A stretch of DNA of 64,000 bases, taken from NCBI GenBank assembly GCA_965602015.1, contig OZ271918.1, positions 352,001 through 416,000 on the forward strand. Reading direction: 5' to 3'. Shown piece by piece: positions 6,001 to 12,000 of this stretch (position 1 is its first letter; the number at the start of each line of letters is the position of its first letter). The stretch is from Salinispira sp. (GTDB lineage: Bacteria; Spirochaetota; Spirochaetia; DSM-27196; Salinispiraceae). A program made the position numbers.

Positions 6001-9000
6001 GGGTTCCGGATCTATATGACGGACGCCAGGCCCGGGGCATACCGGCCACCCGAATACTCCGGCGGGCAAACGCGTATGAGCTGCTCCTCGAGCGGGTACG
6101 CAGGGCCTGGCGGGATCTCCTGTCAGATCCTCTCGTTGATCCTGCCCGGGTCGCCGTCGCGGGATTCGATTTAGGCGCCGAGCTCGCCCTTTCGCTGGGA
6201 AGGGAGGACCCACGTCCGGCGCTTACCTTGCTGTTTTATCCCGGCGAGCTTCCCGCCAGTGCTGAGGAGCTGGGACTGGTGGGCGCCGCCGGACCGGTAG
6301 CGGCGTTTTACGCCGAGCTCGATGAGCGCCTTTCGCTGACGGACCGGGCGGAGTTTGCATCGTTGATGAGCAGCGCAGGGCGGGAGTTCGATCAGATCGT
6401 CTATGAAGGAACCCGCCCGGGCTTCGTTCAGACCGTACGGTCATCGGATACCGGCGCATCCATACGTGCATGGCTCGAGCTTCTGACCATCCTGCAGAAT
6501 CAGTTCTTGCGCTAAAGGGAGCATAATGTGCGCGTCTGCCTTGTTCAGTTCGATCCCGCCTGGGAAAACCCGGAAGAAAACCGAAGACGGATACGAGCAT
6601 TAGTTGACCGGCTTTCCGGGATTGCAGCGGTGTCCCCACAGCCGGCGGATATGATAATTCTGCCGGAGATGTGCCTCACGGGGTTTACCATGAATCCTCA
6701 TGCACACGGTGCCGCTGAAAGTTCTACCGATGACTCGAGCGGCGATACTGACGGCGTAATTGTTGCCGCGACCGGCGCGACTGTCTCGGCCGATGGAGCA
6801 GCTGCTGATCACACGACCGATGCGACAACTTACGGCGCGACTGTCTCGGCCGATGGCTCGGCCGATGGAGCAGTTGCTGATCACGCGACCGATAGCGCAA
6901 CATACGGCGCGACCGATAGCGCAACATACGGCGCGACCGATATCGCGTTGGATGCCCGGGGCTTTTTTTCCCAGTGTGCCCGTTCACTGAACTGCGCAGT
7001 GGTGGCGGGATACGGAGAGTTGGACCCCGACGGAATGGCGTCGAACAGGGCGGGCGCCTGGAGCTCAAGCGGAAAGTTGCTTGCCGATTATGTGAAAAAT
7101 TATCCCTTCAGTTATTCTGGAGAAGACCGGGTTTACCGGGCCGGGAAGGACGCCTCGATGCTCAGCATCGGCGGTCTGCGCTTCGGCCTGTATATTTGCT
7201 ACGATCTGCGATTTCCTGAACATTTTCGGAGGCTTGCAGGTCAGGTTGATTGTTATCTGGTCGTGGCCAATTGGCCCCTGTCACGCATGGCCCACTGGCG
7301 CAGCCTTCTGGTCGCCCGGGCGGTGGAAAACCAGGCCTGGGTTATTGGCGTGAACCGCCGGGGGAAGGACGGCAACGGAATCCGTTACCCCGGGGTTTCC
7401 GTGGTTGTTGATCCCATGGGCGAAATATGCGCAGAGGGAGGAGAAGAAGATGAGCTTGTTTGGGCAGACATCAGCAAATCCTTCGTCGATGAGACCCGGG
7501 CTCGATTCCCCTTTCTGAATGACCGGAAATAATATGAAGTGCCCCCAAAACAGCTGATTTTCCCCTCCTCAGGCCACCGCATAATCGGGAAGATCGATCT
7601 TCAGCGCACTCACCGGTGTCTTCCAGATCCGATGCCAGGTCTTCCATTGGCTGATGTCCAGCACCAGATGATGAACGAATGCCCGCTGTGTAAACATCCG
7701 TTTTACCAACATCAGTACCCGCCTTCGGTCAAACCCCGCAACCTCACCATGGCTGATATCGTTACGTCCGTTTATCCGATACGGCTTGAGCAGGTTATGA
7801 TAGGCGATGTAGATCATCATCCGCTCCATGCTGTTGTTCACCGATTTTGACCACTGCACACTCTGGCGGACATGACAGGATTGATCCTTTCGTATCTCCC
7901 GATCCAGGTAATTCACCGGAAACAGGGGGTTCTCAGTGGTCCTCACTACCCTCGATGAGGTTCGGTGATGGATAACCCGCCCTGCATTTTCCAACGCCGC
8001 CCAGTCCCGGTGAGCGAACAGCTCACGGCGGTATTCGAGTTTTTCATCGCTCAAGAGATAGCATGGCTTCTTCGATGAATAAGCCCTCCACCTGGGAAGA
8101 ATGGTGTTTATCACATCCCGGAAAGATCGCGCAATTTGTCCCCCTGCAATAGGATACCGGCGATTGAGCTCATCGCGCCGGCGCTTTTGCGCGGGGGTCA
8201 TCCGCCCTTTGCGCCGCATCTGCGCATAGTCGCAGGCATAGACAACCTGGCTGTCGCAACCCACCGCGAGGGTGAAGTTGTTCGGCCAGTATTGGCTGTG
8301 CACAAAGCTTTCAAACCCATCAACGGCAATATCCTCATCGATTGTATGATCATTCAATAACTGGGCCATGGCAGCGATTGCCTGACGGGACAATCGGCTC
8401 AGCCGATTGAGAATGACCTTGTCGGTGACATAAAACTCCCGGGCAATGTCGCGGATGCCGGAAGCCGAGTTGATCGAAGAGAAGATGCGCCGGTAATCGA
8501 GGCGATGATGTGCGCGATAATCGAGGTGAAACGCGCTTTCGCAGAAGTATCGACGGCAATGCTTACAGCGATAGCGCTGTGAAGAACCGAGGCGGCGACA
8601 GTGATAGTGGCCGTTTCGGACAAACCAGCATCGGCTTGATTCTCTGTCGCGATGATGCTGAGAGCAGTCCGAGTACGGACAGAATCGGGGGTAAAATGCC
8701 ATGGTAATCTCCTATGAGCGGTAATCGTGTCATAGAAGACTACTGGCAAAAGAGTTATGTTGATTCGATCAGCTGTTTTGGGGGCATATCTGAAAGCGGT
8801 GCCTCCCCGCAAGAGTTTTCATTGTTCTATTACAAAAATTCTGCAAATCGGTTTTGTCCGAGTCATATCTCCGCCATCTACGTGGCATGAAAATGTCCTT
8901 CCAGGGGTGTCGCAATCACTTTGCACAGCCTCGTATTCGCGCTGTAGCCCCAAAAACGCGCTTACCCCTGTCTGGACAAACCCGCTAATGCAGGATCTTT

Positions 9001-12000
9001 GTAATGCTGTTCTTTCTGCAATATCCAAAATATTGCTTCTGCTAAGTGCCGTGCCACGGCGATTATTGCAACCTTATGATTACGTTTAGTACGAACTCTC
9101 TTGTAGAGTTTTACCGTATGTCGGTTCGCCCAATTTCTTTGATTAAGACAGGTTACATTAGCTGCTTCAGTAAGTGCCCACTTCAAGTATCGATTACATG
9201 CTTTCGATGTTCGACCATAATGGATTTTACCTCCGCTCGAGTGAACGCGCGGCGTTGTACCACAGTATGATGCAAAATGTTCAGCGGTCTTAAAGCGATG
9301 TATGTCTCCAATTTCATGCACAATGACTGCGCTGAGAATAAATCCGATCCCGGGAATGGATTTCACCAACTTCATTTCAGCATTTTCATCAAACGCTTCA
9401 TGCATTCGTTGTTCGCAGTCGGTGATAGATTGCTTAATAAACGCGAGATTATCGAGCTTGAGTTTCATCATGCTGCGGGTATGCTCGGGGAGTTTTGGCA
9501 TTACCTTCTTCATGGCTTCTGTACCTGCTTTTCCGAACAGATCGCTCACATCATTGAATCGAAACCCATATTTCTCGAACCCGGCATGAATTTGATTCTT
9601 TTCACGTATCAACTCCTGAACGAACTGCATCCGGGTTCGATAGAGTTCTCGTTTATCACGCAATTCTCCTGGTGGAATCCACACAGTAGGCAGTGTGCCT
9701 GCTTTTTGAAGTTTATTGAGACCTTCAGCATCGAGTTTGTCAGTTTTGTTAAACATGGCCATCATCAATTTTGACTTACCGGCATGAACCAGCAAGGGGT
9801 TCATGCCGGCCTCCTCAATCTCATCCACGATCCAGTACCAACTTCCGATCGTTTCAAGTGCGACTTCCTGTCCCGGCTCAAATTGTTGGAGGAAATCACG
9901 AATACACCCGTGAGAATGTTCTATGCGCTGTGAGGATTTCCTTCCATTTTCGTTCTCAATTGCAGCCACGGTATACCGTTTATGGCTGTCGAGGGATATA
10001 ATAGTATTACTCATTTGGTTGTCCTCCTCCGGTATTTAATATAGACCCTGACTGGCAGGATCTCGGGGGAGGCACCGCTTTCATACCATCACTTCAAAAA
10101 TAATCCCGGCGTCACTCAAAATCCGATATTATCACCCGCAAATCCTCATAATCGGGAACCCGGTAATCTTTAGCCTTCAGGCGGTGGTCAAAATAAGCCC
10201 TGATCTGCTGCCTTTGGTATTCCATAAAGACCTGAGGTTTCACCGACCCGATCATACCCAGCCATTGAACTACCGGGGCATACATATAGAGGGTGGTGAA
10301 CTGCTGATGGGTGATGTTTTCGATCTGATACAGCTCAACCGGTGATTCTAATGCGGAGACAAAGGGCATAAGGTAACCGTCATTGATTCCTCCCTCCCAC
10401 TGAGCGCTGCGAAGGAAAAGGGATGGCAGCTCATATTCCCCCGATTCCAAGTCTGGCCGCCCCACCGGCTCGACCCAGGCATCCAGCCCGACGAGGGCCT
10501 GGATCGACGGATAATCCGTTGATTGCTCACCGGCAGCCTCGAGTTCTCTGCGGTAGTCAATTGCCAGCCGCACCATGGCTCCCCCGCCTGTGGAATGCCC
10601 CAAGAGGCCGATTCGCGATAGATCCAGTTTTCCCGCGAGAGATATACGGTGCTGAAGTCCGCCCGGCTCAGACCCGGCTTGAATGTCCATCAGGTGATCG
10701 AGGATAAATCTGTTGTCATCGGCGAAGGTTTGAACCAGTCGGGAAGACAGGCGGGGAAAATCCGGGGAATTCTCTCGAAGGGGCAGGATATCATCCCCGG
10801 ATTGGATGATTCTGCCGTCTTCCAAAACCACCGCTGCCGCACCGTAGCTGTGGTCTGCTGCGGCAACCAGGTAGCCGTGGCTGGCCAGCTCTTCGGCCAC
10901 ATCGACGTGAAGTCCCCGGTATCCCTCCCAGCCGTGCGAAATGATGATAACCGGGAACCGTTCCCCTTCCGGGCTTATCGCCGGATGAGCTCCTTCAATG
11001 CTGTTGGCCGCCATAAATCCGGTGTGATTCCAGATAAAGCCCGGGAAGCCGTGGGTGTTTACAATTGCCCGGATCTGACGTCTGCCTTCGGGAATCCATC
11101 GCAGCATCCGACGGGTATTTCTCTGTTCATCCGTCGGATACCAAAGCTGAAGCCGAATAGTCCGGGGGCCGGGTGTATCACCGCGAATTGGGGCATAGGA
11201 CTCAGCGCGATCCGGATCGGAAATATCATAGACCACACTGCCCACGGCAAAGGGGCCCGTAGGCTCCGGGAGGTTTCTGGGGGGCATGGCAATGCCCCAC
11301 ATAAAAACCACTCCGATTGCCAGAATAATGACAATAGTAAACAGCAGGATAAAAAGAAGGCGTTTGGCGCTCATGCTTGTAATCTACTGTGAGGGCGGAT
11401 ATTCGACTATAATTAGCGTAAAAATCTCGGCCTGTGCTCGCACTCGCTTATGGAGGTGACCGTGAAAAATCGTCTGTACTGCGTATTGGGAGACATTACC
11501 AGCCTATCGGTGGACGCCATTGTCAATGCGGCCAACCCCTCCTTACTGGGGGGCGGAGGTGTCGACGGGGCCATACATCGAGCCGCCGGCCCCAAGCTGC
11601 TCGAAGCCTGCCGTGAAGTTCGGCGCGAAAAGCATCCCGACGGTTTGCCCACCGGCCGGGCAGTGTTGACTCCGGGATTTAATCTACGTGCCCGGTATGT
11701 TATTCACTGCGTCGGCCCGGTCTACCCGGATCACAGTGCCGATGAGGCTGACTATCTTCTTACATCCGCCTACATAAACTGTCTGCACATTGCCGCCGAA
11801 AAGGGTGACATTCATTCCATTGCCTTTCCGGCAATCTCAACCGGGGTATATGGTTTTCCTCCCAAGCAGGCTGCCGAGCTGATTACCCGGGAGCTGAACC
11901 GCTGGGTAACAGAGAATGACCATCCGCAGTTCATAACACTCTGTCTTTTTTCCCCGGGAGATTACCGCGTCTGGGAAACCGCGTTATCTTCGCTTTGAGG

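Follow-up and report, generated by a model that had tools for sequence, protein, structure and literature searches.

A Composite of Two Insertion Sequences

The window, a 64,000-nucleotide stretch of Salinispira sp. DNA that begins at contig position 352001 and not at 320001, contains two insertion sequences (ISs), one of which lies within a terminal repeat of the other. The outer element, hereafter the host IS, has an intact left terminal inverted repeat (ATGAAGTGCCCCCAAAACAGCTGAT; positions 7534 to 7558, plus strand) that contains a 17-nt core, CCCC[CG]AAAACAGCTGAT. It encodes a 377-aa transposase on the minus strand (7569 to 8702) with a Cys4 zinc finger, a helix-turn-helix (HTH), and an RNase-H-like catalytic domain. 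The terminal repeat is approximately 25 bp long, and on the right side it has been severed by an insertion. Specifically, the inner part (ATCAGCTGTTTTGGGGG plus CA) occupies 8768 to 8786 on the plus strand, while the displaced tip (TTGAAGTG, minus strand) is found at 10090 to 10097. When the outer flanks of the composite are compared, the strongest direct repeat is AAATAAT, located at 7527 to 7533 and again at 10098 to 10104, at either side 8 nt outside CCCC, and we take it to be the target-site duplication of the host IS.

The second element, hereafter the invader, lies on the minus strand between the two parts of the severed repeat (8787 to 10089). It measures 1303 bp, which becomes 1305 bp when a single copy of its TG core dinucleotide is counted, and has ATGGTAT as its left end and AGATA as its right end. 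The left copy of the core is at 10090 to 10091 and the right-end copy at 8785 to 8786 (minus strand), following the arrangement of every copy, AGTG-element-TG-CCCC. Subterminal inverted repeats of 17 bp match perfectly between the right (GGGGAGGCACCGCTTTC; 8792 to 8808) and left (GAAAGCGGTGCCTCCCC; 10066 to 10082) sides when read on the coding strand, and relatives of the element carry repeats of the TGAAAGCG type. The left terminal extension is 7 nt long, and the right one consists of 5 nt and the TG core, the latter unlike the 3 nt given for most IS1111 members in PMC11187229. The single gene (8962 to 10014, minus strand) encodes a 350-aa DEDD transposase, or bridge recombinase, that matches PF01548 (E 4.7e-10), PF02371 (E 1.7e-26), and NF033542 (224.6 bits versus a cut-off of 140). 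Residues D9, E54, D92, and D95, along with a G252-x2-P255-x4-S260-G261 motif, are invariant among 21 sequences, and identity to the nearest proteins in large collections, which are either unnamed or labeled "IS110 family transposase," does not exceed 60%. The gene is preceded by 75 nt of noncoding DNA and followed by 177 nt. Given its DEDD/PF02371 transposase, 17-bp subterminal repeats, TG core, and long 3' noncoding end, the invader is by sequence a typical IS1111-group element of the IS110 family.

Both elements belong to larger populations in the genome. Our blastn searches recovered 12 intact copies of the 1259-bp host IS, each with an open transposase frame; an earlier note on this DNA had given the same number with 96 to 98% identity, a range that we widen to 95.4 to 100% relative to the window copy. 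In total, we counted 119 occurrences of the 17-nt core (62 on the plus strand, 57 on the minus strand), and it forms 40 inward-facing pairs, with spacings of 1243 to 1244 bp (n = 9), 129 to 141 bp (n = 28), or 38 to 43 bp (n = 3), leaving 39 cores without a partner. These counts agree with the earlier note, including its 31 short pairs, with the exception that the miniature elements are not about 160 bp but about 147 bp long (139 bp from core to core plus 8 bp). The 28 miniature elements have only the terminal repeat of roughly 23 to 26 bp in common with the full host IS, and their interiors are 47 to 97% identical (mean, 60%). Direct repeats of 7 to 9 bp flank only 7 of 34 elements compared to 1.65 expected by chance, and the window composite adds a further case. 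Matches to the invader numbered 10, made up of nine full-length copies, as previously claimed, and an additional 932-bp 3' fragment. Each full copy has 1305 bp and an intact 350-aa reading frame, with 98.5 to 100% identity and 0 to 17 nucleotide differences. Searches of two further genomes from the genus did not find the invader.

The insertion joints are highly regular. In all nine full copies, the left joint reads AGTG-ATGGTATG (flank-AGTG-ATGGTATGAAAGCGG), the orientation is the same, and TG is present at both sides as a shared core in place of a conventional target duplication. The right end, CAGATATG, abuts the full core CCCC[CG]AAAACAGCTGAT in seven copies and CCCCGAAAAC alone and then unrelated DNA in one. 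The right end of the remaining copy, which is the upstream one of two exact tandem duplicates, meets unrelated DNA. The truncated copy adjoins CCCCTAAGC. This rereading reproduced the joints first described. The target AGTG-CCCC[CG]AAAAC is common to nine of nine left joints and eight of nine right joints, and the insertion point is constant, that is, at the TG core, 8 nt from the tip of the host repeat. Our analysis supports the three-level nesting proposed in the earlier note, in which a host IS and its miniature derivatives are entered by an IS110/IS1111-type element between TG and CCCC.

A Predicted Guide RNA in the 3' Noncoding End

The earlier note based a guide RNA on an 8-nt match to the target within the 177 nt that follow the reading frame. 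That region does include GTTTTTGGGGC, and our analysis places the match in a much larger structure: within a covarying RNA, it occupies the 5' arm of an internal loop that is conserved, where it forms part of a 14- to 15-nt recognition site, and the equivalent loop positions of 41 relatives are complementary to the different targets of those elements. A two-loop bridge RNA, or seekRNA, is predicted to be encoded by the invader in its 3' end (8849 to 8972, minus strand), starting within the last transposase codons. As drawn from the clade alignment and its covariation, the layout comprises an outer stem P1 and a stem P2, followed by two internal loops, of which one surrounds hairpin P3 and binds the target while the other surrounds hairpin P4 and binds the donor, and a hairpin P5. 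Of 81 clade loci, 62 have the same end architecture, all with a TG core; 42 are nonredundant with full flanks. Across these 42 members, 90.4% of stem cells are paired versus 78.0% after shuffling (0 of 500 shuffles), and 16 of 26 stem pairs have changed on both sides in a compensatory manner. Slid controls gave 33 to 48%. Guide segments and stems are invariant across all 10 copies of the invader.

Four guide segments can be assigned to the two loops, all on the minus strand. The right target guide (GUUUUUGGGGC; 8947 to 8957) is predicted to bind G-CCCC-[C/G]-AAAA-C of the top strand through 10 Watson-Crick pairs plus a U.G pair with the G variant or U.C with the C variant. The left target guide, AAGUG (8917 to 8921), is identical to the top strand to the left of and including the core, and would therefore pair with the bottom strand. 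For the donor, the left guide AGAUAUG (8864 to 8870) equals the right end of the element plus the core at seven of seven positions, and it follows the GAGA, GATA, GATT, and TACA variants of that end among relatives in 42 of 42 cases at seven positions. The right donor guide, AUUUUCA (8888 to 8894), faces TG-ATGGT of the left end and is the weakest of the four (four Watson-Crick pairs, two G.U pairs, and one mismatch). The top-strand complement is situated 5' of the bottom-strand match. This is the same order that PMC11187229 describes for the seekRNAs of IS1111 members, whose guide RNA also lies 3' of the gene.

Each guide tracks its cognate sequence. Using the 42 nonredundant clade members, each with its own target and ends, we compared cognate and permuted combinations, and in none of 5000 permutations was the cognate score reached for the right target guide (4.76 versus 2.80 of 8), the left target guide (4.31 versus 2.03 of 6), the right donor guide (3.67 versus 2.84 of 6), or the left donor guide (5.02 versus 4.47 of 6), although because the members are kin these tests overstate independence. 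An A that pairs with the T of the core is present in 36 of the 42 members. The window element lacks this A in its right target guide and has a shifted register, also seen in five relatives (L057, L059, L079, L089, and L094), which is why it scores only 4 of 8 in the column-wise count.

An argument can be made that the transposase protein reads the site directly, with the complementarity in the 3' end being incidental or a captured scrap of the target. The evidence for the RNA is in silico, a search of Rfam returned no matching family, and the single-sequence fold was not unusual (z = -1.69). Yet homologous loop positions in 41 relatives change with the targets and ends of each element, and the stems covary. 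A captured scrap would not recur in one loop arm across phyla. In addition, RNA dependence has been demonstrated experimentally in IS1111 members, as reported in PMC11187229. We consider direct reading by the protein to be very improbable.

Order of Insertion and Probable Homing

Since AAATAAT encloses the entire composite, the host IS was already in place when the invader entered its repeat, 8 nt short of the tip. The neighbors of the invader include full ISs at either end, miniature elements of different subfamilies, one solo end, and one site that keeps only 14 nt of target, which is the span of the guides. Its left flanks are unique DNA.

This diversity bears on whether host and invader are a single composite unit, moved or copied jointly, for example through the host transposase or homologous recombination, such that the insertions are not independent. 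While 3 of the 12 host ISs carry the invader, and one exact tandem duplication comprises flank and invader together, the outer flanks all differ among the varied settings just described. Moreover, copies of the invader are 98.7 to 100% identical to each other versus 95 to 98% for host copies relative to the window copy, and the host duplication surrounds both elements. Joint movement thus has only a slight chance of being correct. The reverse order, in which the host IS and its miniature derivatives prefer sites beside the invader's right end, has adjacency alone in its favor and can be dismissed with near certainty given that the outer 8 nt of the host repeat, including AGTG, lie beyond the invader in nine of nine copies, the 7-bp host duplication flanks both elements together, and 112 of 119 cores are without an invader.

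Taken together, our results make it highly probable that a 1305-bp IS1111-group element has homed repeatedly, guided by its own RNA, into the terminal repeat of a 1259-bp IS and its derivatives of about 147 bp. If it behaves like its homologs IS621, ISEc11, and ISPa11, the element would excise in circular form, its two ends joining to create the donor site CAGATA-TG-ATGGTA, and the 350-aa DEDD/Ser recombinase would bind an RNA of approximately 120 nt from the 3' noncoding end. One loop of this RNA would pair with the target, (A)AGTG-CCCC[C/G]AAAAC, on both of its strands, and the other with the donor; strand exchange at TG would then leave one TG at each side. A U opposite the polymorphic C/G position could make both repeat variants usable, and the AGUG guide could exclude the ACTG variant. 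AGTG-type ends account for 70 of the 119 cores, and all seven occupied full-core ends are of this type (p = 0.021, based on seven events). With 63 AGTG ends free, the activity of the invader may be low or recent. Assembled contigs from four runs of one sample contained neither a circle joint nor an empty site and were uninformative. Where the 8-nt tip has been parted from the rest of the repeat, that host end should be disabled.

Known Systems and the Host Transposase

That IS1111-type elements home into the ends of transposons, as the earlier note had recognized, and into miniature inverted-repeat elements (MITEs) is already published, with IS4321/IS5075 and IS1111 in QMITE2 as precedents. 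Like IS4321/IS5075, the invader is of IS1111 type, has subterminal inverted repeats, and splits the terminal repeat of another transposon at a fixed position and orientation. Here, however, the host is a small zinc-finger-transposase IS with its MITEs on a spirochaete chromosome rather than a Tn3-family resistance transposon, and the target sequence is unrelated. According to PMC5896051, 20 of 21 copies of IS1111 in Coxiella burnetii are inserted in the palindrome of QMITE2, which is likewise a high-copy miniature inverted-repeat element; that account places the target in an internal REP-like palindrome of a MITE whose autonomous partner is not known, whereas in our case it is the terminal repeat itself, common to 12 intact autonomous copies. 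In the bridge RNA of IS621 and the seekRNAs of ISEc11, ISPa11, ISKpn4, and ISPst6, as described in PMC11208160 and PMC11187229, loop arms pair with opposite strands on either side of a 2-nt core, for target and donor alike. The RNA predicted here resembles them in its internal-loop arms, use of both strands, and 2-nt core, and resembles those of IS1111 members in its location 3' of the gene. It differs in having TG instead of CT as core, in an unusually long right target guide (10 to 11 nt) that is shifted by one position, and in clade-specific stems and loop sequences.

Our findings leave the current understanding of how such elements work unchanged. They do provide a clean natural case of a mobile element that exploits the end repeat of another as a high-copy, harmless landing site. 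Because each part survives intact, with 12 hosts, 9 invaders, and 63 AGTG-type sites still free, the system would be convenient for asking whether homing silences the host. Furthermore, the 42 natural sets of guide, target, and donor for a TG-core, IS1111-type bridge RNA, which include a guide in a shifted register and a wobble position that faces a polymorphic base, constitute useful comparative data for bridge-recombinase engineering.

The host IS had been called IS1-like, a description that holds for one end of its transposase. In a family-profile comparison (hhalign), the N-terminal domain matched E. coli InsA over 73 columns (probability 95.4%, E 1.7e-8). Of 26 family members, 25 matched NF033558 with scores under its cut-off (best E 3.3e-11), and 17 weakly matched the zinc-finger domain NF050000. 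The catalytic domain did not conform. It contains invariant D128, D219, and D267, and the third catalytic residue is apparently Asp; the transposase has no Pfam match, its catalytic domain did not match InsB (hhalign probability 0.5%), and profile searches of the genome at E <= 10 returned nothing for PF03400 or for PF12762, the IS1595 catalytic domain. Assignment by catalytic domain to either IS1 or IS1595 was rejected on these grounds. With the predicted structure (AF2, pLDDT 86.6) as query, Foldseek gave 65 matches to integrases, ISCth4, and Mu transposases at E <= 0.001, in keeping with an RNase-H-like fold that is common to many families.

By ISfinder descriptions, the IS1 family has terminal repeats of about 23 bp and target duplications of 8 to 9 bp. 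The host IS is like E. coli IS1A in its InsA-like zinc finger and HTH and its small size; its terminal repeat of about 23 to 25 bp and, where visible, its target duplication of 7 to 9 bp may be further likenesses. It is unlike IS1 in its single 377-aa frame without a frameshift, and the two terminal repeats have only CTGAT and GTG in common. More speculatively, the host may represent its own IS family, largely of Spirochaetota, that combines an InsA-like, DNA-binding head with a catalytic domain built on a D-D-D triad, and the invader could be a recent arrival whose bridge RNA was naturally reprogrammed onto the terminal repeat, disabling the ends of a rival transposon. We regard this extended scenario as rather unlikely; if true, the wobble U would tolerate the C/G polymorphism of the host repeat. 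Relatives of the host transposase amount to 567 clusters at E <= 1e-30, mostly annotated as "hypothetical," and the host IS flags them as a sizeable, unannotated spirochaete transposase family.

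A nested pair of mobile elements

The interval 7527-10104 holds a nested pair of mobile elements. The outer one, a resident insertion sequence (IS) that we call the host, occupies 7534-8786 and 10092-10097 (1259 bp in total), with ATGAAGTGCCCCCAAAACAGCTGAT as its left and TTGAAGTGCCCCC... as its right terminal repeat, and with a single 377-aa open reading frame (ORF) on the minus strand (7569-8702). The inner one, an element of the IS1111 group of the IS110 family that we call the invader, lies on the minus strand at 8787-10089 (1303 bp) and breaks the host's right repeat, with a TG on each side (8785-8786 and 10090-10091). 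The 7-bp sequence AAATAAT occurs as a direct repeat at 7527-7533 and 10098-10104, each copy lying exactly 8 nt beyond the CCCC of the adjoining host repeat. Because these copies flank the whole composite, the host inserted first, producing the duplication; the invader then entered the host's right repeat at a point 8 nt from the tip. Our analysis thus confirms the nesting described in an earlier note and supports its interpretation as RNA-guided homing. The coordinates of that finding were right, but a conversion that subtracted 320000 from contig positions was off by 32000, since the window begins at contig position 352001.

Just upstream, a 334-aa ORF on the plus strand (6528-7532) ends 2 nt before the host, with its last 6 nt within the target duplication. 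Its middle contains a series of imperfect repeats rich in Ala, Thr, Asp, and Gly (..ATYGATVSADG..).

The host element, its ends, and its miniature relatives

The copy numbers previously claimed were largely reproduced. With blastn, we recovered 12 host copies, all with open frames and 95.4-100% identical to the window copy, along with nine full invader copies and one that is 5' truncated. The 17-nt core of the terminal repeat, CCCC[CG]AAAACAGCTGAT, again occurred 119 times in the genome, comprising 39 unpaired cores and 40 inward pairs, of which 9 are 1243-1244 bp apart, 28 are 129-141 bp apart, and 3 are 38-43 bp apart. Miniature elements were confirmed in 28 cases, but their size is ~147 bp and not ~160 bp. 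All that they have in common with the IS is a terminal repeat of ~23-26 bp, and their interiors form several subfamilies with 47-97% identity (mean, 60%). Judged by these comparisons, the 28 elements resemble miniature inverted-repeat elements (MITEs) that use the host's ends and are not recent deletion derivatives. One element at 48649-48686 (contig 400649-400686) consists of terminal repeats only, with two cores back to back (38 bp core to core); comparable pairs occur at contig positions 2681485 (38 bp) and 2356766 (43 bp).

The description of the host as IS1-like holds for its DNA-binding head but not for the rest of the protein. No Pfam domain was detected in the 377-aa sequence. The NCBIfam model NF033558 (IS1) aligns with residues 40-139 at 35 bits and is matched by 25 of 26 family members. 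Likewise, a profile of the host family (A1) matched Escherichia coli InsA with 95.4% probability, whereas InsB reached only 0.5%, and a search of the genome for PF03400 and PF12762 returned nothing at E ≤ 10. Since InsA is matched without InsB or PF03400, the likeness to IS1 is limited to the DNA-binding head. E. coli IS1A has terminal repeats that agree with those of the host at ~10 of 22 positions, a likeness that we rejected as evidence.

An AlphaFold model of the host protein (pLDDT, 86.6) has an RNase-H-like order of β1-3/α/β4/α/β5/α, in which the invariant residues D128, D219, and D267 sit, in turn, on the first strand, where the fourth strand ends, and in the next helix. A Foldseek search with the model gave 65 matches at E ≤ 0.001, which were retroviral integrases and the transposases of ISCth4 and Mu. 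The host family comprises 567 clusters at E ≤ 1e-30, mostly labeled hypothetical and, where taxa are known, mostly from Spirochaetota. Within the same genus, one genome (G401, 83% complete; e.g., locus L112) has 21 cores, 20 of them of the G type, and a host-type transposase that is only 61% identical, so the repeat is more conserved than the gene. In a second genome (G332), host-type members are only 33% identical and the core is absent. On the basis of sequence and modeled fold, the host is either a deep subgroup of IS1 or a separate family.

The invader and its choice of site

The invader protein contains PF01548 and PF02371 and scores 224.6 bits against the NCBIfam model "IS110 family RNA-guided transposase." Residues D9, E54, D92, D95, and G252-x2-P255-x4-S260-G261 are invariant in its alignment with 20 homologues. 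The element has perfect 17-bp subterminal inverted repeats and noncoding ends of 75 nt (5') and 177 nt (3'). These traits of protein and ends are the ones that published accounts use to define the IS1111 group (PMC11187229, PMC11208160). Each of the nine full copies is 1305 bp long with an intact 350-aa ORF, and they differ by 0-17 nt.

In large collections, no protein exceeds 60% identity to the invader transposase. A search of 401 genomes from the phylum matched just two, the window's own and one with a partial match (49%), and with this query a close relative was found in neither of the two same-genus genomes, G401 being only 83% complete. A scan of genome contigs with the single transposase as the query gave no match; when the query was an alignment of homologues (A2), 80 loci were recovered from many phyla at 47-56% identity. 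Some of these relatives, at L064 and L068-L074 (one Terriglobia genome) and at L050-L053, L060-L063, and L076-L078 (Acidobacteriota), occupy a recurring site, ..CTCGGAA-TG-AC.., which is used at many places in one genome.

As the earlier note had proposed, the insertion position is fixed. Read on the invader coding strand, all full copies have the form flank-AGTG|ATGGTATGAAAGCGG ... CCGCTTTCAGATA-TG|. To the right there is a full core in seven copies, CCCCGAAAAC followed by unrelated DNA in one, and unrelated DNA alone in one; this last copy comes from a tandem duplication of two identical 1560-bp units, of which it belongs to the upstream one. The left flanks differ from each other, except in the two copies of that duplication. 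The invader adjoins three host ISs, two at the gene-proximal end and one at the distal end, as well as three MITEs, a solo end, and a 14-nt remnant, which at contig position 331371 keeps exactly (A)AGTG|CCCC[C/G]AAAAC. This sequence is the site that the guides described below would recognize. Occupied full-core ends are all of the AGTG type (7 of 7, versus 70 of all 119 ends; hypergeometric p = 0.021) and include both the C (4) and G (3) variants.

In the tandem duplication (contig 3399415-3402534), each unit combines the 1305-bp invader with 255 bp from its left flank, and the two units show 0 differences. The boundaries fall at TG, both upstream (..ATTCC-TG|GCATAT) and at the novel joint (CAGATA-TG|GCATAT), which could reflect use of an off-target TG site by the recombinase or chance (1 in 16). 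The right end of the 5'-truncated copy (contig 1708353-1709280; 932 bp aligned) adjoins CCCCTAAGC, a partial target match only.

Homing of this general kind has been published for IS4321/IS5075, IS1111-group elements that enter the terminal repeats of Tn21-family transposons, and for an IS1111 element that enters the miniature element QMITE2 (PMC5896051). A 3' bridge RNA or seekRNA has also been published for IS1111 members (PMC11208160, PMC11187229). Here these traits come together: the target is a terminal repeat common to an autonomous IS and its MITEs. The host lineage and the target sequence are new. In the literature, ISfinder and supplements aside, we found no description of the invader or the host family, and no paper under the term ISMhu11; the supplementary target logos of PMC11187229 might hold a close relative.

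A candidate guide RNA and the proposed recombination

The ends of the invader and its relatives follow a common architecture, ...CTTTCAGA[GT]A-TG-A[TA]nnnATGAAAG... with a TG core, which simple patterns recovered in 62 of 81 elements (the 80 loci plus the window's), the 19 misses being truncated, masked, or divergent. At least 10 nt of flank was available on both sides in 56 elements, or 42 once redundancy was removed on the basis of the initial 100 nt of the noncoding end. Their 3' regions (124 nt) align well (A3) and support five helices: an outer stem (P1), GCGC/UGCG (P2), a hairpin in the internal loop (P3), a hairpin in the second loop (P4), and P5. Pairing was observed in 90.4% of 1081 cells versus 78.0% after shuffling (reached in 0 of 500), fell to 33-48% when partners were slid by 1-3 columns, and was accompanied by changes on both sides in 16 of 26 helix pairs.

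Furthermore, the arms of both loops track each element's own sequences. With the core excluded, cognate versus permuted matches were 4.76 versus 2.80 of 8 for the right target guide, 4.31 versus 2.03 of 6 for the left target guide, 3.67 versus 2.84 of 6 for the right donor guide, and 5.02 versus 4.47 of 6 for the left donor guide; none of these values was attained in any of 5000 permutations. Because the relatives are kin, these figures overstate independence. This test was anchored by column, in place of a noisy unanchored search for the longest common substring (cognate 5.2 versus 4.2).

In the window, the predicted right target guide (8957-8947, GUUUUUGGGGC) forms 10 Watson-Crick pairs with G-CCCC-[C/G]-AAAA-C and places a U opposite the polymorphic C/G base. 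The earlier note had argued for an RNA guide from TTTTGGGG; that complementarity stands, and under this pairing it is the center of the longer guide. The left target guide (8921-8917) is AAGUG, and the left donor guide (8870-8864, AGAUAUG) matches at 7 of 7 positions. All 10 invader copies have identical guide segments and stems, and the 124 nt vary at two sites, one in a linker and one in a hairpin loop; this constancy and the AGTG type of all occupied full-core ends favor a guide RNA. Against it, or at least odd, the right donor guide (8894-8888, AUUUUCA) is weak, with 4 Watson-Crick and 2 G·U pairs of 7 to TGATGGT, and the A that pairs with the core T in 36 elements is missing from the window element and five relatives (L057, L059, L079, L089, L094). 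Relative to P3, these six have a right target guide displaced by one position, and they score low by column. Rfam gave only chance-level matches to the 3' end (E, 0.98-5.9) and no bridge-RNA family, and a single-sequence fold (z = -1.69) is uninformative alone. On balance, RNA-guided, site-specific recombination at the TG core is very probable.

Excision of the invader would restore AGTGCCCC repeats. In a circle, the abutted ends (8787-8830 and 10060-10089) would set TTGCGG 18 nt upstream of TATGAT. This hybrid pair is weakly promoter-like and we do not claim a promoter, as it agrees at only 8 of 12 positions by eye; promoter-like pairs across IS110/IS1111 circle joints have been reported (PMC11187229). 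A promoter and terminator scan of 8700-10200 found 4 promoter-like sites versus 2.9 expected. Four contig sets from one sample showed no joints, circle junction, or empty site over 7300-10400, but these contigs break at repeats and are thus uninformative.

A less probable but more novel reading is that the host is an unrecognized IS family whose ends the invader, by natural reprogramming, has come to disable. Homing into repeated sequences, with guides to match in each case, seems to characterize the whole invader clade. Targets vary widely among the relatives, including TG-ACAAAA, TG-TCCCTCG, TG-ACCCCCA, and TG-CCAAC, and the guides follow.
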